A stretch of 26,853 nt of DNA, taken from IMG/VR virus record IMGVR_UViG_3300036796_000024, positions 1-26,853 of that record; one strand, given 5' to 3'. Below are positions 2,342 through 25,629 of this stretch, in pieces (position 1 is the first letter of the stretch; every line of letters begins with the position of its first letter). The stretch comes from a virus (lineage: Duplodnaviria > Caudoviricetes). The notes beneath the pieces were generated by a model, which was given only the letters and a program-made list of their open reading frames with translations, was not told the DNA's origin and did not search any database. A program made the position numbers and the translations under genes.

Positions 2342-2413
2342 GTGTAATTTTGCACTTTGCTTAAATAGCATACGATTGACGAGAGCCACTTTCACAACGG
2401 CTCTTCATCGCAC

Positions 2414-2436
2414 AGGTCACCTCCTGGTGGCTTTTT
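2414..2436 (+). terminator. Intrinsic terminator downstream of rha
   Basis: AGGTCACC-TCCT-GGTGGCTT followed by TTT. Confidence 0.7.
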
Positions 2437-2646
2437 AAATGCATCACCACAGCGTCACCCCGTCGCAGTCTCTCCATCTCAACGAAGACCATGCCGCCAT
2501 AGCGGGCTCCTCACATGCGAGTGGATGGAGTTAATCAGTAGCGGGTTACACCGGGTTTCCGCACAAGCGGGTTATCCCTCATTAGCAGTCAACCTGAACT
2601 GCGGTGGATGAATCAGGAAAACACTCAACTAACACAGAGGTTTGAA

Positions 2647-2805
2647 ATGGAAACAGGCATTCTGACGTACAAGTGGACACTTAAGCCTGGCATGAAGTGG
2701 CTGCTGATTATCTCAGGACTTCTGCGCTGGGACTGGCTCATCAAGAAGTGCTACAGCATTGAGCTGGTAACTGGAGATACAGCCGAGATTAAAAGCGGCC
2801 GGTGA
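2647..2805 (+). CDS. Small hypothetical phage protein, 52 aa, Trp-rich with a hydrophobic segment
   Basis: SD AGAGG at 2636-2640 before ATG2647; METGILTYKWTLKPGMKWLLIISGLLRWDWLIKKCY... Confidence 0.65.
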   Translation: METGILTYKWTLKPGMKWLLIISGLLRWDWLIKKCYSIELVTGDTAEIKSGR

Positions 2806-2808
2806 TTT

Positions 2809-2857
2809 ATAAAATTCTGCAAAGGTCGTCATGTTGATGGCCTTGACAGAGTTTTAT
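2809..2857 (+). other. About 21-bp RNA hairpin in the leader of the 2928 gene (possible RNase III-type site)
   Basis: ATAAAATTCTG/CAGAGTTTTAT (11 bp) plus AAGGTCGTCA/TGATGGCCTT (10 bp); GU pairs favour the + strand. Confidence 0.6.
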
Positions 2858-2927
2858 GTAAGTTTTTGATGGCCCTGGTGTCGACTAATCCGGGCGGATA
2901 TCAATCTAACCCAGAGGATTGTTCTAA

Positions 2928-3371
2928 ATGACCAGCAAAACAGAAACGATAGCCATCACCATTGAGGTTGATTCCAATGAGCTTCCGCAAAAGATTCAAG
3001 ATATAAACAAAGCGCTGATGAGTTATGGCTTTACTCCAAAGCCTGGGCAGGTGTTTATCAGTGAAGCATTAATTAATCCTGCTGACACTCAGTCCATAGG
3101 AAAAGTGGTTGATGAAAAAGGTGTTACCCGTGTTCAGTTCTCTGGTCCGTTTGAAATCACTGTTGACAATGGCTCTATTGGTGGTGTGTCGGAAAGTATC
3201 CTTGCCAATGCTAAGGCAATTGCAGAGTTAGAATCCGCCGTACAAAAACACATTAGTAAAGAATCGGGCATTGAAAGTCCTCGGATGCGGCAGATTATCC
3301 GAGAAGAGATGCTAATGCAGATGTTCCCTGGCGGCATCTTAAGCATTTACTCGGCGGCATCCAGAGGTTGA
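2928..3371 (+). CDS. Accessory protein, 147 aa, carrying short motifs resembling tape measure termini and the J C-terminal (DUF1983-like) region
   Basis: SD AGAGGA at 2913-2918; motifs IEVD..NKALMSYG, GQVFISEALI, AIAELESAVQ and PGGIL have counterparts in this window's TMP and J. Confidence 0.8.
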   Translation: MTSKTETIAITIEVDSNELPQKIQDINKALMSYGFTPKPGQVFISEALINPADTQSIGKVVDEKGVTRVQFSGPFEITVDNGSIGGVSESILANAKAIAELESAVQKHISKESGIESPRMRQIIREEMLMQMFPGGILSIYSAASRG

Positions 3372-3381
3372 GGAATAAGTA

Positions 3382-3897
3382 ATGGCGAAACCAGATTGGG
3401 AGGCCATCGAATCGGCTTACCGGGCTGGTTCCTTGTCGGTAAGGGCCATCGGTGAAAAGCATGGCGTTAACCATGCCACCATCCTGAAGAGAGCAAACAA
3501 AGAGGGATGGCAGCGCGACCTGACAGAGAAGGTCAGATCGGCAACTAAGGCTAAGGTAACCAAGTCGGTAACCAAAGACGGTAACCAGTCACCAGTGGTT
3601 ACTGATGATCAGATTATTGACCAGGCATCCGATGAGGCCGCCGCTGTAGTCATGGCTCACCGTGAAGGGTTGGCAGCATGGCGAGGAATCACCAATAAGC
3701 TTCGTGACTTCCTCGAAGACGCAGAGATAACCGAAGAGAATCACGCCTCCATGTCGCGCTCGATAACGGCTGGCGTCGATGCTCAGATAAAGGTTATCAA
3801 CGCTGAGCGCAAGGCGTACAACCTCGATACGGACGAAGGTAGCAAGACGGTCGATGACCTGTCTAACCTGATGGATTCATTGTCTCAGGGGGCTTAA
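3382..3897 (+). CDS. terS: Terminase small subunit
   Basis: N-terminal HTH MAKPDWEAIESAYRAG.LSVRAIGEKHGV...RANKEGWQRDL; SD GAGGA; stop overlaps the terL start. Confidence 0.88.
   Translation: MAKPDWEAIESAYRAGSLSVRAIGEKHGVNHATILKRANKEGWQRDLTEKVRSATKAKVTKSVTKDGNQSPVVTDDQIIDQASDEAAAVVMAHREGLAAWRGITNKLRDFLEDAEITEENHASMSRSITAGVDAQIKVINAERKAYNLDTDEGSKTVDDLSNLMDSLSQGA
3555..3602. repeat. GGTAACCA repeat cluster inside terS (candidate pac/TerS-binding region)
   Basis: GGTAACCA at 3555, 3567 and 3580; GTCACCA at 3588; inverted TGGTTAC at 3596. Confidence 0.6.
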
Positions 3898-14247: not shown

Positions 14248-15165
14248 CTATCTGTGAAGGCGTTTCATCATCTCTTCAATGCGGAAGCCTGGAACAGAAC
14301 CCGGCTTGATGTGAGATGTTTCTCTTGCGAGAGCCTGGTAGCACATGCTTATCACGTAAGTTGTGTCCCGGCTTAAGTCCCAGAAGTCACCGGCAAGGCG
14401 AGATTCCATATCACGGAGAGATGGGTAAATCTTATAACTCAAATCACGAGCGCGTTGCATCCAAAGGAACAGACTAACGAAACGCAGCAGCTCTGTGTCG
14501 TTAAACTGAGGTGCGTCAAGTTTTGGCAGTGCCTCCTGCTTGCCGAGGAATTCACCTTCGATAGACCTCAGAAACTCGACAGCCTCAAGTGATTCGCTGG
14601 CCGATAACTGGTTGATGTGCTGAACGTCGAACCGGTCATGCACCAACTTCCAGATTGCCTGGTACTTCATGCCTGACTTGTTGGCGATCATCTTTTCGAC
14701 GTACTGGCGAAGTGGTGTGCGTTCGTCAGAAGATGACTTGCGCTGCTTCGGTTTTTTCTGCTGTTCGGCGACTTCTGCTTTAACATTAAAGTAGCAATCT
14801 TCCAGTTGCTCGAAAACTTCCCATGCTTTATCTGTTTCGAGCATCTTAGCGTGACGGGCTGCCCCGCGCTCAGTCCAAAGAATGAGGTGTTTTGCACGGC
14901 TTGCGACTAACCCTCTTAAAGATGGTTTGTCTTTAAATTCTTTTAATTCAGCACCTTCTAGTTTGAAATAATGCTTTCCGATAGCGAAGCGTCCAGCATT
15001 ACGGAGGTAGTTGTTCTGGATATGCTTAACTTCTGAACCGTACAAATTTGCCAAGTTTTCAGTAGTGATAACTCTCATTCCCTCATGCCCTACAGGCGGC
15101 AGTTCGCTTGCAGAAATTGCGGAGGTTTGCGTGATTGGTGCGTTGGTTTTTGCTACATTAGTCAT
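14248..15165 (-). CDS. ant: Antirepressor (ORF6N N-terminal domain, P22 Ant C-terminal-like domain)
   Basis: RVITTENLANLYG...LILWTERGAARHAKMLETDKAWEVFEQLEDCYF is ORF6N-like; QFNDTELLRFVSLFLWM...IYPSLRDMES resembles the P22 Ant C-terminus; SD AAGGA. Confidence 0.88.
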   Translation of the reverse strand: MTNVAKTNAPITQTSAISASELPPVGHEGMRVITTENLANLYGSEVKHIQNNYLRNAGRFAIGKHYFKLEGAELKEFKDKPSLRGLVASRAKHLILWTERGAARHAKMLETDKAWEVFEQLEDCYFNVKAEVAEQQKKPKQRKSSSDERTPLRQYVEKMIANKSGMKYQAIWKLVHDRFDVQHINQLSASESLEAVEFLRSIEGEFLGKQEALPKLDAPQFNDTELLRFVSLFLWMQRARDLSYKIYPSLRDMESRLAGDFWDLSRDTTYVISMCYQALARETSHIKPGSVPGFRIEEMMKRLHR

Positions 15166-15232
15166 GTCTTTATTCCTTCGAAGGGATTGGACAAATAGAG
15201 GCCCTGGCTATCGTAAGTAGCTGGGGCTTCGT
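15166..15232 (+). ncRNA. sar: Sar-like antisense RNA covering the ant ribosome-binding site
   Basis: Extended -10 TGcTACATT (15151-15159) inside the ant start; two hairpins whose GU pairs form only on the + strand; GAAGCCCCAGCT...AGCCAGGGCCTC resembles the P22 arc-ant intergenic region as remembered. Confidence 0.7.
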
Positions 15233-15235
15233 CAT

Positions 15236-15258
15236 ATTGGTAGCCACTGGCTACCAAT
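15236..15258. promoter_or_regulatory. Perfect palindromic operator in the Omnt position
   Basis: ATTGGTAGCCA-C-TGGCTACCAAT, an 11-bp perfect inverted repeat at the predicted Pant start site. Confidence 0.85.
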
Positions 15259-15259
15259 G

Positions 15260-15288
15260 TTGAAATGTTAGTATCCATGGGCTATCAT
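15260..15288 (+). promoter_or_regulatory. Pmnt-like sigma70 promoter overlapping Pant
   Basis: TTGAAA (15260-15265), 17 bp, TATCAT (15283-15288). Confidence 0.8.
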
Positions 15289-15293
15289 GTCAA
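15265..15293 (-). promoter_or_regulatory. Pant-like sigma70 promoter
   Basis: TTGACA (15293-15288), 17 bp, TAACAT (15270-15265) on the - strand. Confidence 0.85.
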
Positions 15294-15319
15294 CACAATA
15301 TTTGAGCAAGGTAACTTCC

Positions 15320-15562
15320 ATGTCATCACCAAGAAACCCACAATTTAACGTCAGAATTCAGCCAGAATTAAAAGAGAAGGTGGCAGCTCTTGCAGAAAGG
15401 AATAAGCGATCTGTCAATGCGGAAATTGTTGCGGCTTTAGAGGCGTGGGTTGAAGCTGGATTCTCCACTAACCCCGCTGGTAGCCTCGCTGAGATTGCTA
15501 AATCGTTGGATGGGTTAAGGGTGCTGATTGAGAGACAAGAAGCATCAAGGGGGCAAGATTAA
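15320..15562 (+). CDS. mnt: Arc/Mnt-family ribbon-helix-helix repressor (Mnt-like, 80 aa)
   Basis: PQFNVRIQPELKEKVAALAERNKRSVNAEIVAALE is Arc-family; extra C-terminal helix as in Mnt; divergent from ant; ATG15287 lies within the promoter, so 15320 is preferred. Confidence 0.85.
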   Translation: MSSPRNPQFNVRIQPELKEKVAALAERNKRSVNAEIVAALEAWVEAGFSTNPAGSLAEIAKSLDGLRVLIERQEASRGQD

Positions 15563-15568
15563 ATTACA

Positions 15569-15739
15569 ATGCCAACCATCAAGCCAAAAACAGATCAGTA
15601 CCAACTACGATTGCCTCATGGGTTCCGAGATCAGTTAGAAGAAGAGATGAAAAAGGATGGCGACTCATCATTAGCTGCGTGGATCAAGAGAGTGCTGAGG
15701 AAAGAATTACAGTCTCGTGGCGTTGAGCCAAAGGGATAA
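15569..15739 (+). CDS. Second small ribbon-helix-helix-like protein, 56 aa; not in the ORF track
   Basis: Read directly: MPTIKPKTDQYQLRLPHGFRDQLEEEMKKDGDSSLAAWIKRVLRKELQSRGVEPKG*; alternating beta strand YQLRL then two helices. Confidence 0.75.
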   Translation: MPTIKPKTDQYQLRLPHGFRDQLEEEMKKDGDSSLAAWIKRVLRKELQSRGVEPKG

Positions 15740-15831: not shown

Positions 15832-16188
15832 ATGAAAAAAGTATTAGCTGTTGCTTTGGGCGTAATGATGTTGGCAGGTTGTAGTTCTCGCGTTGCAGAT
15901 CTCACTGTTGCGAGCACTAAAAACTATAACCTTAACTCCAATAATTTCATCAAGGGCGCGCGAGTTACTGCAGAGGACTCTGCGCCTGTGGTCATTTTCC
16001 CTTTGGGCATTCCCAATGTGAAGACAGCTATCGACAGAGCTATTGAGAAGAACCGCTGCTCAGTTGCCCTTTCTGATGTGGTCGTAACTCAATTTAACCA
16101 TTCTTTCCTGTTTGGTAAGTTTGGGTTCCTCATTGAGGGAACTGAGGTTATTGATCGGGGTCAACCTGGCTGCCAGAACGCAAGCTGA
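15832..16188 (+). CDS. Moron-encoded lipoprotein, 118 aa, probably outer membrane
   Basis: Signal MKKVLAVALGVMMLAGC with lipobox LAGC and Ser at +2; own promoter and terminator. Confidence 0.85.
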   Translation: MKKVLAVALGVMMLAGCSSRVADLTVASTKNYNLNSNNFIKGARVTAEDSAPVVIFPLGIPNVKTAIDRAIEKNRCSVALSDVVVTQFNHSFLFGKFGFLIEGTEVIDRGQPGCQNAS

Positions 16189-16232: not shown

Positions 16233-16250
16233 ATGCCCGGAGAAAAACAA

Positions 16251-18626
16251 ATGGCAGAAAAAGCAGGGTCTATTTACTTTGAGGTCGATGCTGAATTGTC
16301 AGGTCTCTTGGATGCACAGAGGAAGGCAAATAAAACTCTAGATTCTATCGGCAACTCCGCAACAAACGCATCAACTAAAATTTCTGGGCTCGTCACTGGT
16401 ATATCAAGATTAGCCGGAGCCATTGCGGCATCTGTCATCATTGAGTTTGGTAAAAACTTCCTGCAAGCCGCAGATGCTGTTTCTCAATTACAGGCAAGGA
16501 TAACTCGGCTCTCTCCTGATTTAGTTGCAGCAAACCAGACGTTTGGAGAGTTAGCCGATATTGCATCAAAAACAGGCGCTGGGTTGCGTGATACTACCAA
16601 GCTTTGGGAAACCTTAACCTCATCGCTAAAAGAGTCTGGGGCGACAAACGCGCAGGTTCTTAATCTTACGCAAACACTACAGAAAATAGGTCGCATTGGC
16701 GGATCATCTGCTGAAGAGATGGCTAATGCCCTGAGGCAGTTCGGACAGTCAATATCTGGCGGTGTTGTAAGGGCAGAAGAGTTCAACTCAATTCTTGAGC
16801 AGATGCCAGAGTTGGCCAGGCAAATCGCAAAAGGTATGGGCGTGAGCATAGGGCAGCTTCGCCAACTAATGTTAGCTGGTAAGTTATCAGCCGAAGACGC
16901 GCTTAATGCGATTCAGAGAAGAACGGAAGATGTAAACAGTGAATTCGATAAGCTGCCGAGGACACTGGACCAAGCAACTGGATCGCTTTCAATATCATTC
17001 GCCAAATTAACAGCTTCTGTCAACGAAGCTACAGGGGCTTCTCATTTGGCTGTGGAAGTCATTGACCGATTATCAGGATTTGTTGCCAAGCTCGGAGATA
17101 ACTCAACAAGTACTGCTGAGAAGTTTTTATCAATGGCCGCTGCAATTTCAAAGATAACGCCATCAATTAGCGGTGCGACAGTAGTTAATTGGCTGTGGCC
17201 TGACGATGGTCAGAAAAAGCAGAAAGAATACGATGATCTGGTCAATGACTTCATTAAGTCATCGCAGAACGGCTACGAGCAAGCAAAGAAAAACGCAGAG
17301 GGAAGGAAAGAGATTTCACTTGCTGGCGCAGATGCTGACAGCAAAGCAACAGAGAAGCTAGTCCAAAACTCAGCTCGTAGACTTGCCTTATCAAAATTAG
17401 AGGGTGAGGCCAGAGCACGTCTTCAGGCTAAATATGATGCTGCTGACGCCGGAATAAAAGACCCTGAGAAAGTTAAAGAACTTCAGGACCAGTATGCAGC
17501 AACATACAGAAACGTTCAGGCCCAGAAAGAAAGCAACAAAGAAAGCAAATCATCAGCATCCTCAGCTGAGTCCGTGGCGCAGAAGCTGGCGAACCTGAGG
17601 CAGCAATCAGAACTGGCGGCAGACTCAACGCGAGAGCTAAGCCGTGAACAGGCGATTCTTAAGGCCCAACAGTCCCTTGGCAAGGCAGCCACGCAAGACC
17701 AGATCAAACTAGCCGGCGAGTACGCTGCGAAGACATGGGATGTGGCTAACGCTTTAAAAATGAGGCAGGAAGCAGAGCAGGCTACCAGGTTCGTTAACCA
17801 GGAAGTCTCAGCTGCTAAGGTGCAGCGTGACCCGTACACTGGCGAGGCCGTAGACCCTTACGCTCAGGTTAACGAGGAAGAGTCTCGCAAGCTGGAAGCA
17901 CTCAGGAAATACCAGCAGCTCGGTGCTGTTGATGCCCAGCAGTATGAAGATGGGAAGACCGCCATCATGCAGCAGGCAGCCAATGAGCGTATTAACATTG
18001 CTCAGGATGAATCACGTAGGCAGGTTGATGTGATGAATACGCTGCTAGGTGGGTTGGGTGATAGCTTCTCTGGTCTCGCTGATATCATCTCAAAAAGCTC
18101 TGGCGATACCAGTGATGCCTACCGCGTCCTGTTCGGCATCGGTAAAGGGTTTGCTGTTGCTCAGGCCGGACTAAACCTTCAACTCGCACTTTCTAACGCT
18201 ATGGCTTCCGGCCCGTTCCCCTGGAACTTGTCAGCAATGGCGAGTGTAGCTGCGGCAGGCGGTTCGCTAATCTCCTCTATTGCCGGAGCCACATATGGCG
18301 GTGCTCGTAAAAACGGTGGCCCGGTATCTGCAGGGGAAATGTATCGAGTAGGTGAGGGCGGCATGCCTGAGATTTACCAGGCTAGCTCCGGTAGGCAGTA
18401 CATGATACCTGGCGATAATGGAAAGGTGATCAGCAATAAGGATATGCAGGGTGACGGTGGAGGTGGCGCATCATTCAACCCTGTAATGAATCTTACAATA
18501 AATACTACAGGAGGAGTTGGTGAAGAGGATATATCCAGGCTCCGTAAAGTATGGAATAACGATATGATGAAAATGATGGTCGACCAGAGTAGAAGGCCTG
18601 GAGGTATTCTGGCGCCAAGGAAATAG
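16251..18626 (+). CDS. Tail tape measure protein, 791 aa
   Basis: ALRQFGQSISGGVVRAEEFNSILEQMP tape-measure motif; long Ala/Gln-rich helices; GARKNGGPVSAGEMYRVGEGGMPE near the C-terminus; SD GGAG. Confidence 0.95.
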   Translation: MAEKAGSIYFEVDAELSGLLDAQRKANKTLDSIGNSATNASTKISGLVTGISRLAGAIAASVIIEFGKNFLQAADAVSQLQARITRLSPDLVAANQTFGELADIASKTGAGLRDTTKLWETLTSSLKESGATNAQVLNLTQTLQKIGRIGGSSAEEMANALRQFGQSISGGVVRAEEFNSILEQMPELARQIAKGMGVSIGQLRQLMLAGKLSAEDALNAIQRRTEDVNSEFDKLPRTLDQATGSLSISFAKLTASVNEATGASHLAVEVIDRLSGFVAKLGDNSTSTAEKFLSMAAAISKITPSISGATVVNWLWPDDGQKKQKEYDDLVNDFIKSSQNGYEQAKKNAEGRKEISLAGADADSKATEKLVQNSARRLALSKLEGEARARLQAKYDAADAGIKDPEKVKELQDQYAATYRNVQAQKESNKESKSSASSAESVAQKLANLRQQSELAADSTRELSREQAILKAQQSLGKAATQDQIKLAGEYAAKTWDVANALKMRQEAEQATRFVNQEVSAAKVQRDPYTGEAVDPYAQVNEEESRKLEALRKYQQLGAVDAQQYEDGKTAIMQQAANERINIAQDESRRQVDVMNTLLGGLGDSFSGLADIISKSSGDTSDAYRVLFGIGKGFAVAQAGLNLQLALSNAMASGPFPWNLSAMASVAAAGGSLISSIAGATYGGARKNGGPVSAGEMYRVGEGGMPEIYQASSGRQYMIPGDNGKVISNKDMQGDGGGGASFNPVMNLTINTTGGVGEEDISRLRKVWNNDMMKMMVDQSRRPGGILAPRK

Positions 18627-18652: not shown

Positions 18653-18892
18653 TCATTCTTCGCCAAGGGCAGTTTTCACTATCTCTCTTATCATATCATT
18701 CACATAATTGGCTGCTTCTTTTATTTCTTCTTTAGAAACTGTATCACTTTCTATCTCATCGAAATTCATTGTGCTTTTTTCAGTGAGTTTTTTAAGAATC
18801 TGCTGTTGATCTTCATTAAGGACAGCAATTACATAACTAAGAACAGTTTTCACTGCCATTGCGGTAAGAAGTGATTCATTTTGAATGGTCAT
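18653..18892 (-). CDS. AT-rich antisense moron, 79-aa acidic helical protein of unknown function
   Basis: Strong SD AGGAGG; extended -10 upstream; terminator downstream; inserted between TMP and M. Confidence 0.8.
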   Translation of the reverse strand: MTIQNESLLTAMAVKTVLSYVIAVLNEDQQQILKKLTEKSTMNFDEIESDTVSKEEIKEAANYVNDMIREIVKTALGEE

Positions 18893-21249: not shown

Positions 21250-21273
21250 AGGCCACCTTCGGGTGGCTTTTTT
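21250..21273 (+). terminator. Intrinsic terminator before J
   Basis: AGGCCACC-TTCG-GGTGGCTT followed by TTTT. Confidence 0.8.
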
Positions 21274-21289
21274 ATTTCCGGAGAACGCG

Positions 21290-24200
21290 ATGTCATCAGG
21301 CGGCGGTAAGGCTTCAACACCCACACTTATTAACGATAACCTACGCTCAAAGCAATTCCTGAAGGTTCTGGACCTCATCAGCGAGGGGCCAATTTACGGA
21401 CCGGTTGACCAGGATCACCTTTCATCTTTTCTTCTGAACAAAACGCCGGTGACCAGCGTTAACGGTGACACAAATATCAACGGCGTAAGCGTGGCCTGGC
21501 GGCCAGGCTCCGAAACTCAGTCTCCTATTAATGGCTTTTCTGCCATTGAAGCGACGACCATCGTAAACAACGATATCACTTTTGATACTCCACTGGTCAG
21601 AACCGTTTCTGACGTTGATGTAACAAGGGTCAGACTGAATATCGGCGTTCGCAGTCTTGTAGAGCAGGATACAAAGGGAAATCAGAAAAACACATCCGTC
21701 ACCATGTCCATTGATGTTCGAACCGGCAACAACGCTTTCCAGCCCGTTAAAACCGTGACTATTGGCCCCAGCAAAATATCAGGAGAATATCTGGAGGCGC
21801 ATGTAATCGACGCTCCAGACACAAAGCCATTTGATATTCGTGTTCGCCGTATAACGCCTGACAGCACCAGTGACCTGCTTAGTAACGGAACGGTGTGGAA
21901 TAGTTACACAGAAATCACTGACGACAACCTTACATATCCGTTCTCTGCTATCGCCGGTGCAGTCATTGACCGTGACCAGTACACCGACACGCCGACGCGC
22001 ACTTATCACCTGCGTGGGCTGATTGTTGACGTGCCGGATAATTACGATCCGATTGCCCGCACCTATACCGGGCTGTGGACTGGTGGCTTCAAAAAGGCAT
22101 GGACTAACAACCCGGCATGGCTTTTCCGGGCTCTGGTGACAAACAATCGATATGGGCTTGCTCGCCGCGCTGGCTATATCGATGTTGATGATGGCTCGCT
22201 CTATATTCTTTCTCAATACTGCGACCAGTTGGTTAACGATGGATATGGCGGCAAGGAGCCGCGTCATGTTCTCAACGCATACATCACAGAGCAGTCAAGC
22301 GCCAGAGATATTCTGGACAAGATTGCCGGGATGTTTCGTGGAGTGGCGTTGTGGGATGGCATGCGTTTAACAGTGATGCTGGACGCACCTCAAGACCCGA
22401 TAGCAGCTATCAGCAATGCTAACGTTGTAGATGGGAAGTTTAGCTACAGCTCAGTGAAGCAGTCAGAGCGTTATAACGCTGTCGTCGTATCATGGACTGA
22501 CCCAAACAACGGCTGGCAGGACGCGAAGGAATACGTTTCCGACGATACGCTAATCAGCCAGAGCGGAAAGTACAACGAAACGACCATTGAGGCATTTGGT
22601 GCGACATCTCGCGGTCAGGCGTGGCGAGCGGGTAAGTGGCTGCTGGAAACTGCAAAGCGTGAGAACAAACGTGTAACGTTCCAGATGGCGCGTGATGCCA
22701 TCGCGTTCACACCCGGTGACATTGTTGAGGTGATGGATAATAACCACGCTGCCGCACGTCTCGGCGGGCGTATCATCTCACATGCGGGCTCTATCATTAC
22801 CGTTGATGCTGATGTCTCTGAGCTTGCTGGCAGCGGCGATGGAATGTCCATCATGGGAAGCAACGGGAAGCTGGTTAAGTATGATATTGCCAGCGTCGCA
22901 GGAGACAAAATCACGCTTCGCACCGCTCCGGTATGGGTTAAAGACGGCACTGTATTCGTTATCTCTACAGCGAGCGTTAAAACTCGACTGTGGAAAATCC
23001 TCGGCGTTGCAGAGACCGAAAACAATTCCGTCTACAGCATTACCGCAGGACTTCAAGACCCTAACAAGCAAGCTGTTGTTGATGAGGGGGCAGTCTTCGA
23101 TATACCGAATGATACTGCCAATGGTTATCGTGTCCCGAACATCGAAAACCTGCGCATCATTAACACCAATACTGAGACTGTTCAGGTTACTGCTACGTGG
23201 GAGACTGCAACCACAACGCGCAAAATAACGTTCGAGCTGACCATATACACCGAAGATGGAAAGGTTGTATCGCAGCACGAAACAGACCAGTTCCGTTATG
23301 AGTTTTACGGCATAGATGCAGGGCGATACTCGCTTGGCGTTCGCGGCCGCAACGAGAACGGCATGAAAGGTGCAGAGACTCAGGTTAGTCTCGTGATTGG
23401 TGCGCCGCCTGCCCCCTCAAGCATTGTATGGACTCCAGGGCTGTTCTCAGCTGATCTTGTTCCGGTGATGAATATCTCAGCTACCACAGACACTTCGTTC
23501 GAATTCTGGTATTCAGGAGAGAAAAGGATAACGAACCCAGCCGTTATCGAAGATCAGGCCCAATTCCTCGGACGTTCAACCCAATGGACGTTACACGGGC
23601 TCCAGGCTGACAAAACCTACTATGTCTACGTGAGAACCCGGAATGCCTTTGGGGTATCCGATTTTGTTGAGGCGTCAGGGCAGGCATCCTCTGATATTCC
23701 AGGGATGAATGACTATATCGACAAGGCCATTCGCGATTCCGATGCATTTAAAAACGTGCAGGAAGGGGTTGATACTAACCTGGAGGGGATCATGGAGAAT
23801 TCCCTGGCAAACCACGGAACGGTTGAGCACCAATTCCAGCAATATGGTGAGGTCCGTGCAGATGTTCTCGTTGTGAAAACAACGGTTGCAGAAGTCGATC
23901 ATGCACTGGCTGACCTGTCAGAGTATGTGCAGGCTCAGGTAGGTGATCTGACGGCAGCGGTTAACCAAAAAATGACAGCCGAAGTAAAAAGCGACGGAAC
24001 AGCAAAGGCGAGCTATACGCTTAATATGGGGATTGTAAGAGATGGTGTGAAGTACAACACTGGATTTGGCATGTCCCTTGAGCCATCAGGCAGCTCCTAC
24101 AAATCCACTGTAGTATTTGCAGCTGACCAGTTCGGTATCTACTCAGGAAGCGACCCAGGCAATTATCAGGCTGCGTTCTTTGTATTTAACGGACAGGCAT

Positions 24201-24448
24201 TTATCAACTCTGCATTCATTCAAGACCTGTCTGTAACTAATGAAAAGATTGGTGAGTATATCCGGTCTAACAATTACTCCCCCGGAGCTTCTGGCTGGAA
24301 TATACCCAAAAGCGGCAAGATTGAAATTAATGGAGGGGCCATTTCAATAAATAGCACGGGTGACGGGAGTGGTAGAACGGTATTAGATAATAATGGATTA
24401 ACTGTATATAACGGGAATTCGCAAGTTGTTGTTGTTGGTTTTTATTAA
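21290..24448 (+). CDS. J: Central tail fibre/host-specificity protein J, 1052 aa
   Basis: MSSGGGK...LDLISEGPIYG, WTGGFKKAWTNNPAW, FN3-like region, DUF1983-like C-terminus FAADQFGI...NGQAFINSAFIQD. Confidence 0.96.
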   Translation: MSSGGGKASTPTLINDNLRSKQFLKVLDLISEGPIYGPVDQDHLSSFLLNKTPVTSVNGDTNINGVSVAWRPGSETQSPINGFSAIEATTIVNNDITFDTPLVRTVSDVDVTRVRLNIGVRSLVEQDTKGNQKNTSVTMSIDVRTGNNAFQPVKTVTIGPSKISGEYLEAHVIDAPDTKPFDIRVRRITPDSTSDLLSNGTVWNSYTEITDDNLTYPFSAIAGAVIDRDQYTDTPTRTYHLRGLIVDVPDNYDPIARTYTGLWTGGFKKAWTNNPAWLFRALVTNNRYGLARRAGYIDVDDGSLYILSQYCDQLVNDGYGGKEPRHVLNAYITEQSSARDILDKIAGMFRGVALWDGMRLTVMLDAPQDPIAAISNANVVDGKFSYSSVKQSERYNAVVVSWTDPNNGWQDAKEYVSDDTLISQSGKYNETTIEAFGATSRGQAWRAGKWLLETAKRENKRVTFQMARDAIAFTPGDIVEVMDNNHAAARLGGRIISHAGSIITVDADVSELAGSGDGMSIMGSNGKLVKYDIASVAGDKITLRTAPVWVKDGTVFVISTASVKTRLWKILGVAETENNSVYSITAGLQDPNKQAVVDEGAVFDIPNDTANGYRVPNIENLRIINTNTETVQVTATWETATTTRKITFELTIYTEDGKVVSQHETDQFRYEFYGIDAGRYSLGVRGRNENGMKGAETQVSLVIGAPPAPSSIVWTPGLFSADLVPVMNISATTDTSFEFWYSGEKRITNPAVIEDQAQFLGRSTQWTLHGLQADKTYYVYVRTRNAFGVSDFVEASGQASSDIPGMNDYIDKAIRDSDAFKNVQEGVDTNLEGIMENSLANHGTVEHQFQQYGEVRADVLVVKTTVAEVDHALADLSEYVQAQVGDLTAAVNQKMTAEVKSDGTAKASYTLNMGIVRDGVKYNTGFGMSLEPSGSSYKSTVVFAADQFGIYSGSDPGNYQAAFFVFNGQAFINSAFIQDLSVTNEKIGEYIRSNNYSPGASGWNIPKSGKIEINGGAISINSTGDGSGRTVLDNNGLTVYNGNSQVVVVGFY

Positions 24449-24726: not shown

Positions 24727-25401
24727 ATGGCTATTGGAATGAAGATTTCCAGGCGCGACGGAACATTTTTCGCATCACCTGATTTCACACCACTGATGCT
24801 GGTACAAGTTCAGGATGTAAACGTCCAGTCAGAGATAGGCCAGCCAGTTATTGGCACAAACGTTCCAAATGGAAAACAATGTTTCATGTTCGCTCGCGCA
24901 AGAGATGACGCTAGTGCAGGGATTTACGCTTACGTAAGGAATGGGGGCAATGGATACAAAGAGATAGTGGTAAATGCTGCCCTTTCTAACATATCTGGAG
25001 CCGGGTATACAGTATTTAGATTCTATCTTTTTTCAAACTTTATCCCATGGAGGCCAAGGTGGGGCGTCTTCTTTTTCAGCCCAACGACTGGCGAAATGAT
25101 TTACTCTGGAAATATGCTTCCATTACAAGTTATGAACTGGAATTATCTCTCACCTGCACCATCAGGATATCCATGCGCTGTGATCCCCTCTCTTCATGAT
25201 TTTACTGTGGAACCTATGCAAGAACGTGAATATCTCTGGACAGAAGACGTTTTTCACGGAGGAACAAATGGCTTAGATATAGTCCCCGTGACGGTAAGGA
25301 TTGTATCTGGAGTTGATGATAGCGCGGCTGTGCGGGCTAACTGTCTGTATATTGATACGCGCCTTTACGACGCGTATTACAGGATTTCACTTAATGTTTA
25401 A
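24727..25401 (+). CDS. Post-J tail tip protein, probable receptor-binding component, 224 aa
   Basis: MAIGMKI...WGVFFF...GEMIYSGNMLPL...LYIDTRLYD; lies between J and cor. Confidence 0.65.
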   Translation: MAIGMKISRRDGTFFASPDFTPLMLVQVQDVNVQSEIGQPVIGTNVPNGKQCFMFARARDDASAGIYAYVRNGGNGYKEIVVNAALSNISGAGYTVFRFYLFSNFIPWRPRWGVFFFSPTTGEMIYSGNMLPLQVMNWNYLSPAPSGYPCAVIPSLHDFTVEPMQEREYLWTEDVFHGGTNGLDIVPVTVRIVSGVDDSAAVRANCLYIDTRLYDAYYRISLNV

Positions 25402-25629
25402 CCCACACTTGGATAAATCAACTTCCCTCGCGTTTGCCCATTGTAGTTGATATGGTCCGCCTAACTGAACCAGCAACCCATTCGGCGATTCTTTAGTTGC
25501 CATGACTGGAATATTATAACCGCCATGGATATTGTTTGCTTTGGCATAGCAAATAGGCTTGGCAAGCATGTGAGAGCAACCAGAAACTGCAATCAGTGAC
25601 GCGAGGCATAGCAACTTAATGGTTTTCAT
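25387..25629 (-). CDS. cor: Cor-like superinfection exclusion lipoprotein, 80 aa
   Basis: Lipobox VSGC; P-x-C...GG...G-x-P-Y-x-x-x-W...C pattern of phi80/N15 Cor; SD AAAGGA; adjacent to tip genes. Confidence 0.78.
   Translation of the reverse strand: MKTIKLLCLASLIAVSGCSHMLAKPICYAKANNIHGGYNIPVMATKESPNGLLVQLGGPYQLQWANAREVDLSKCGLNIK

Follow-up and report, generated by a model that had tools for sequence, protein, structure and literature searches.

The window analysed here, a stretch of 26,853 nucleotides, covers the late half of a lambdoid siphophage genome. Between its lysis and packaging genes lies a small gene whose product recalls pieces of the tape measure protein (TMP) and of the tail tip protein J. 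We asked whether this likeness is real, where its pieces come from, and what such a protein would do for the phage. The open reading frame is located at 2928-3371, as the preliminary description of this DNA had reported, on the plus strand and encodes 147 amino acids. It is preceded by a probable purine-rich ribosome-binding site (2913-2918, +; read from the sequence) and its stop codon lies 10 nt upstream of terS, the terminase small subunit gene (3382-3897, +). The GC content of the gene is 44%, compared with 50.5% for the window. The gene order is holin, endolysin, Rz, rha, a 65-aa ORF, the 147-aa gene, terminase, head genes, TMP and J, where neighbours without a Pfam match carry names that we presume from recognition of their sequences. 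The Rha-family gene (1580-2341, +) stands after Rz, and the order Rz, rha, accessory genes, packaging is that of phi80. Named members of the terS cluster of the window come from Enterobacter, Escherichia and relatives. The phage has its own TMP (16233-18626, +; PF20155, TIGR02675) and its own J (21263-24448, +; PF09327, PF24489, NF049904). The 147-aa gene is sense to the late operon and no promoter-like (sigma-70-like) site was found upstream of it; from the lambdoid organisation, its expression would be late and Q-dependent.

A conserved non-coding leader (2806-2925, +) precedes the gene and is found at 72-75% identity in Klebsiella phages, one lambda-like isolate and five E. coli genomes. 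In all three of the records read, the leader stands 5' of a different gene, of 211 aa, just upstream of terS. It has no Rfam match and is possibly a portable leader or a recombination joint for the terS-adjacent slot. The 65-aa ORF between rha and the 147-aa gene (2608-2805; phrog_20573) showed no match to phi80 AtiEcA. The tail region also carries several morons, namely a lipoprotein gene (phrog_7441; 15832-16188, +), a reverse 79-aa ORF right after TMP (18653-18892, -), a Cor superinfection-exclusion gene (25387-25629, -) and, at 14248-15739, an antirepressor with two small genes that we take to be Arc-like by recognition.

Searches with the single sequence were not informative. No match to the 147-aa protein was obtained from Pfam, PHROG, NCBIfam or a word search, from tblastn against phages and plasmids, or from pattern scans of viral and metagenome sequences, and among PDB sequences only Rok was returned (E = 0.4). 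A hit on a genomic contig (L004) was, in our reading, a chance match to an AsmA-like protein, and the three loci returned by a degenerate motif scan were all chance. A viral scan with alignment A1 confirmed 0 of 104 candidates by a check that was built on the 147-aa protein itself. In the ESM Atlas, an unnamed 152-aa cluster scored 0.92 and a 225-aa cluster, 27% of which has PF09327, scored 0.83; both are leads only.

At 90% identity the 147-aa protein clusters with no other sequence. Among 401 genomes, eight weak matches were obtained: two were J genes, five were unrelated, and one (L196, in G770) was a family member, namely a frame of 189 aa that directly follows lysozyme and Rz and contains the same three modules. 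A search with L196 returned 45 relatives, those with names coming from Hafnia and Serratia, and also led to phi80 ORF x171.28 ("similar to N15 gp59") and to genes of Fraca, AsXd-1 and CharmingMan. A 50-member profile that excluded the 147-aa protein scored it at 30.7 bits over aa3-137, with 0/2000 shuffles as high (best shuffle 11.6), and scored N15 gp59 at 38.8 bits. With 107 further members the protein reached 42.5 bits; these members had been found via an alignment in which it was one of 30 rows. An exhaustive profile search yielded 134 clusters at 50% identity, all of 48-403 aa and none a full J or TMP. The closest relative, P0232, shares 32% identity over aa4-139 (E = 6e-13). The family profile marked 22 places in 17 of the 401 sampled genomes, and rapid indels were seen among family members. 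The family is so far uncharacterised, its phi80 and N15 members being annotated as hypothetical only; a literature search, mostly of openly accessible papers, found no description of it or of tail-mimic decoys.

Phi80 x171.28 and N15 gp59 (PHROG 17079) are in the same profile family and the same lysis-to-packaging slot as the 147-aa gene. They share with its product the strand-helix module, the DUF1983-like motif and the TMP-like end, whereas the extra N-terminal domains of the phi80, N15, Hafnia and Serratia members are absent from the 147-aa protein, which has no PHROG 17079 match. In P0017-P0062 and P0139-P0211, the first 55 aa form an N-terminal domain that is strongly conserved, has no name in Pfam and matches neither J nor TMP; some members (L209, P0088) consist of that domain and the TMP-like end only. 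A second N-terminal module, helix-rich, of ~80 aa and without a Pfam hit, is present in phi80 x171.28 and relatives (L204:3853-4100, L219, L222, L228, L205). Fraca and P0188 carry both N-terminal modules together.

The preliminary description had read the protein as a mosaic of the tail proteins of this very phage. Pairwise comparison with its own J and own TMP gave best E values of 0.75 and 0.20, respectively, none significant, and the gene has no DNA similarity to the J or TMP gene of the window. The mosaic stands at the level of the family, not as copies of the phage's own tail proteins. A profile of the C-terminal third of J scored the 147-aa protein at 6.8 bits, with 1/2000 shuffles as high (2/2000 with an earlier profile). 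A profile of the Pro-Gly-Gly-class TMP C-terminus, built from 18 sequences, scored it at 8.9 bits with 1/2000 shuffles as high, while 253/2000 shuffles reached the score of an earlier TMP-C profile of mixed classes. Individual segments were compared with 40 shuffles each (eight segments against three sets), using samples of 25/73 J and 25/54 TMP-N sequences and segments that were picked post hoc.

On these segment shuffles, three of the six motifs that had been proposed hold, one (aa59-70) is weak and two fail. Segment aa40-52 (3045-3083, +) matched the J DUF1983/central-straight-fibre motif with 0/40 shuffles as high; earlier, aa40-50 had been aligned with it. Within this segment, Q41 and F43 map on Q922 and F924 of lambda J, in the HepS trigger, and the motif fits the family consensus better than it fits the cognate J. 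Segment aa90-106 (3195-3245, +), which contains the aa97-106 match reported before, resembles the end of the J coiled-coil shaft (0/40) and is a helix in both AlphaFold models. The shaft and fibre roles of these J parts are established from the lambda structure. Segment aa120-139 (3285-3344, +) consists of a helix and Pro-Gly-Gly like the TMP C-terminus (0/40), which is in agreement with the TMP-C profile and bears out the earlier match of aa120-138. The motifs quoted for J (aa977, at 24191) and TMP (aa789, at 18597) agree with the translations. The order of the pieces is scrambled relative to J, as had been noticed, since the DUF1983-like piece (J aa977) precedes the coiled-coil-like piece (J about aa881).

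The remaining motifs were less secure. Segment aa58-73 (3099-3146, +), in which an ending typical of J had been seen at aa59-70, weakly resembled the strand pair at the extreme C-terminus of J, a likeness favoured by the profile of the J extreme C-terminus (9/2000 shuffles) and not by the segment test (6/40). That strand pair contains the TaiEcA escape residue (phi80 J V1185). The sequence of P0232 differs at the stretch matching aa59-71, and the J C-terminal likeness of the 147-aa protein may therefore be a swap or chance. Segment aa6-35 (2943-3032, +) is a strand-Asp-helix module typical of the family; it weakly resembles both TMP N-termini and the J helix that follows the last FN3 domain, all J and TMP scores being below 5 bits. 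A TMP N-terminal origin of aa10-34, as first suggested, was rejected, with 7/40 shuffles as high by segment, 80/2000 by the TMP N-terminus profile and no TMP at 5 bits or more. The match of aa72-77 to J was likewise discarded, because 31/40 shuffles scored as high for aa72-80.

AlphaFold modelled three or four separate helices without a confident fold (pLDDT 52, pTM 0.31; shallow alignment). The low confidence may be due to the thin alignment; taken at face value, the models suggest a protein without a compact fold. J and TMP, as the source of the short motifs (for J, PF09327 Phage_Tail_Tip/DUF1983 and PF24489), are about 800-1100 aa long compared with 147 aa here, and in the small protein the pieces are reordered and most domains are missing, with intact J and TMP present in the same phage. 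The protein has no Pfam or NCBIfam J match (no PF09327) and is encoded outside the tail operon. It is not a TMP either, as it has no TMP domain and only its last 20 residues resemble a TMP end.

By sequence comparison, the mosaic is real and family-wide. Among 148 distinct members, 104 scored above the 99th percentile of 1480 shuffles on J, 70 on TMP-C and 34 on TMP-N, in a set that is partly circular because J-like parts helped to collect it. A second set was drawn from 107 new proteins, 74 of which have an unrelated N-terminal domain and 72 at least 30 residues after it. When these 72 were scored only after the N-terminal domain (>99th percentile), 47 were J-like, 45 TMP-C-like and 35 both; 57 were either once the J C-terminal profile was included, and 13 were TMP-N-like. 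The TMP-like end was at the C-terminus in 78/148 members versus 5/1480 shuffles. The J pieces that are kept, and their order, differ between members: N15 gp59 has an FN3-like domain, AsXd-1 and L210 have J DUF1983 strands (46% identical in AsXd-1), the phi80 and Fraca members have the J helix after the FN3 domains, and P0062 has the J C-terminal strand pair, which scores up to 18 bits in members other than the 147-aa protein. PF09327 is carried by several members, the phi80 member scoring 23.4 bits against a cut-off of 22. The family could account for small "tail tip fiber protein" annotations outside tail operons.

Whether the motifs track the cognate tail proteins had also been raised. When the protein of the window was ranked against tails, its own TMP end came first by one point and its own J was low. 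Over the family, with pairs omitted where J or TMP was truncated or could not be identified, permutation gave p = 0.14 for J (n = 15) and p = 0.33 for TMP-C (n = 16), and cognate tracking was rejected. The lack of tracking fits mimicry of a consensus.

All 22 genomic copies were on the late-gene strand, in line with the late-expressed accessory protein proposed in the preliminary description. Nineteen lie between lysis and packaging genes, 17 of them with a Pfam-confirmed Rz-like, HNH or terS neighbour and two presumed to lie there from shared neighbours; in the five named phages the family gene is also in this interval. The other three copies are inside tail operons, two of them identical copies in G907, and this position fits a structural role too, which speaks against a decoy. 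The identical members of G907 (L224, L229) are located between the tail terminator and tail tube genes. Neither the single protein nor the family profile had a match in 80 proviral loci with near-identical terS, so that the family gene is an exchangeable accessory.

The J- and TMP-like pieces overlap published defence targets, namely the HepS trigger, the TaiEcA escape site and the Tab-linked TMP C-terminus, as the preliminary description had anticipated for tail-directed defences. The activator of HepS is lambda J 902-933, a peptide whose 32 residues suffice, with Q922 and F924 at the interface, and the Phe-bearing J peptide is reported to activate HepS, not to block it (PMC13043305). In the 147-aa protein, aa40-50 correspond to the core of this trigger with Gln and Phe kept, and its upstream part is replaced by proline-rich residues unlike the trigger hairpin. 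The activating Phe is kept in 81/92 members with the motif, and so many members might trigger HepS rather than block it. According to the legend of Fig. S6 in PMC11364771, the TaiEcA escape residue HK106 V1176 equals phi80 J V1185, which sits in the last strand pair of J. In the Pseudomonas Tab system, sensitivity follows the TMP C-terminus and no escape mutant could be isolated (PMC10884400). A review states that Bil tags the central tail fibre and that SNIPE associates with TMP (PMC13434031). The overlap is suggestive and no proof, because conservation within J and TMP is also highest in these motifs.

The best reading, to which we give an even chance, is that the gene encodes a late multi-epitope decoy for tail-targeting defences. 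Such a non-essential protein, assembled from short pieces in altered order that recall the C-terminal third of J and the C-terminus of TMP, would be produced late in infection from a Q-dependent transcript. It would bind host or prophage defence proteins that block or tag tail parts, so that assembly of the genuine J and TMP could proceed, to the presumed benefit of the phage. It should be effective against stoichiometric blockers (Tai-, Tab- and Bil-like) and ineffective against peptide-activated sensors (HepS-like), unless, owing to its altered flank, it binds them silently. A broader version, held more tentatively at somewhat under an even chance, is that lambdoid phages carry a recombining, late-made cassette of conserved structural-protein epitopes that mops up several unrelated defences. 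If true, the module content of each member would be a map of tail surfaces under immune attack, including those attacked by undiscovered defences. The J or TMP motifs targeted by Tai, Tab, Bil, HepS and SNIPE are hard for phages to mutate, and a decoy of such motifs would be a general way round these defences, in contrast to the one-to-one anti-defences described so far.

Results with phi80 limit the decoy reading, as do the HepS-activating Phe, the shortness of every motif in the 147-aa protein and the failure of two of the six. The order in phi80 is rha, tai, ati, a reverse ORF and the family gene; the latter (x171.28, ABF05_gp49) is taken to be orf66, equated by position. Phi80 lacking orf62-66 was propagated and spotted (He et al., PMC11364771), and in the text available of that paper a titre drop among the single deletions is reported only for orf64. 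Phi80 without ati was still inhibited by TaiEcA although the family member was retained (PMC11364771); the phi80 member is therefore no anti-TaiEcA. This member is without the J C-terminal strand pair, where TaiEcA escape maps.

The same motifs could act against tails instead of for them. A dominant-negative poison, whose pieces stall nascent J or TMP trimers during the tail assembly of competing phages or tail-stealing satellites, would explain why the pieces derive from trimer-forming parts of J, a homotrimer (PMC13043305), and match the cognate tail no better than others. We consider it unlikely, since all 22 copies are late-oriented with no promoter-like site upstream of the gene in the window, and the poison would be synthesised alongside the J of the same phage; the known blockers Tai and Tab are constitutive, with tai on the opposite strand (PMC11364771, PMC10884400). 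We also doubt, to the same degree, that the protein is an accessory assembly chaperone or minor virion part shielding unassembled J and TMP ends until the tail tip forms. The late-operon position, the three copies inside tail operons and PF09327 in several members point that way, whereas module content and order vary freely with no co-variation with the cognate J or TMP, the gene was not found in 80 close terS relatives, and phi80 grows without it (PMC11364771).

Patchy presence (17/401 genomes), rapid indels and the lack of a known phi80 phenotype would all suit a functionless or near-neutral patchwork that illegitimate recombination with tail genes left behind and that perhaps serves as a passive reservoir for shuffling tails. 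This is rather improbable given that reading frames stay open and motifs persist at the protein level throughout 134 clusters, that the tail genes of the window show no DNA identity to the gene, and that the TMP-like end keeps its C-terminal place far more often than in shuffles. A deliberate trigger of tail-sensing abortive systems, for example to time lysis or to harm co-infecting phages, would account for the activating Phe, as a 32-residue J peptide suffices for HepS (PMC13043305). We regard it as very improbable: activation, which Gifsy phages avoid, would presumably cost the carrier its burst if it came in its own late phase, and the proline-rich residues before the motif differ from the trigger hairpin.

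Returning to the decoy, its nearest functional parallels are AtiEcA (phi80 orf64; PMC11364771) and anti-Tab (JBD26 gp30; PMC10884400), which are likewise small late-operon genes. These late counter-defences occupy the slot beside the packaging genes and neutralise a tail-assembly blocker by binding it, and the available text of both papers does not describe them as tail mimics. Each has a defence gene of its own as partner, whereas the 147-aa gene has no tai gene nearby. Comparison of the 147-aa protein with AtiEcA gave no blastp match at E < 1, and tblastn gave no AtiEcA match in the window. TaiEcA had no match in the window either, where no reverse ORF of at least 50 aa was present within 2400-3130 of this late-half contig, and no TaiEcA or AtiEcA homologue was found in 47 context loci. 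Tai and Tab blockers are expressed constitutively in the lysogen from a promoter of their own; the 147-aa gene is sense to the late operon, with no sigma-70-like site upstream. The 147-aa protein resembles Ati and anti-Tab in timing and place and belongs to neither group. A direct test of the idea is feasible in E. coli K-12, because the classical phages phi80 and N15 carry members.

Other genes occupy the same region in related elements. In most of the 80 proviruses with this terS (L005-L084), a 64-77-aa beta-rich protein is encoded directly upstream of terS. In L038, L047, L075 and L080 this place is taken by a strand-helix-helix protein of 63-68 aa, loosely reminiscent of the first and last family modules, that does not score with the family profile. 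A 485-aa glycosyltransferase-like gene (weak PF00535) is located closely 3' of the family gene in L208, L228, L205, L206 and L207, and the downstream gene of this type in CharmingMan is annotated as a glycosyltransferase. The lysis-packaging slot also holds an alginate-lyase-domain gene (L215:217-1416) and an unnamed 292-aa gene (L212:2004-2882).
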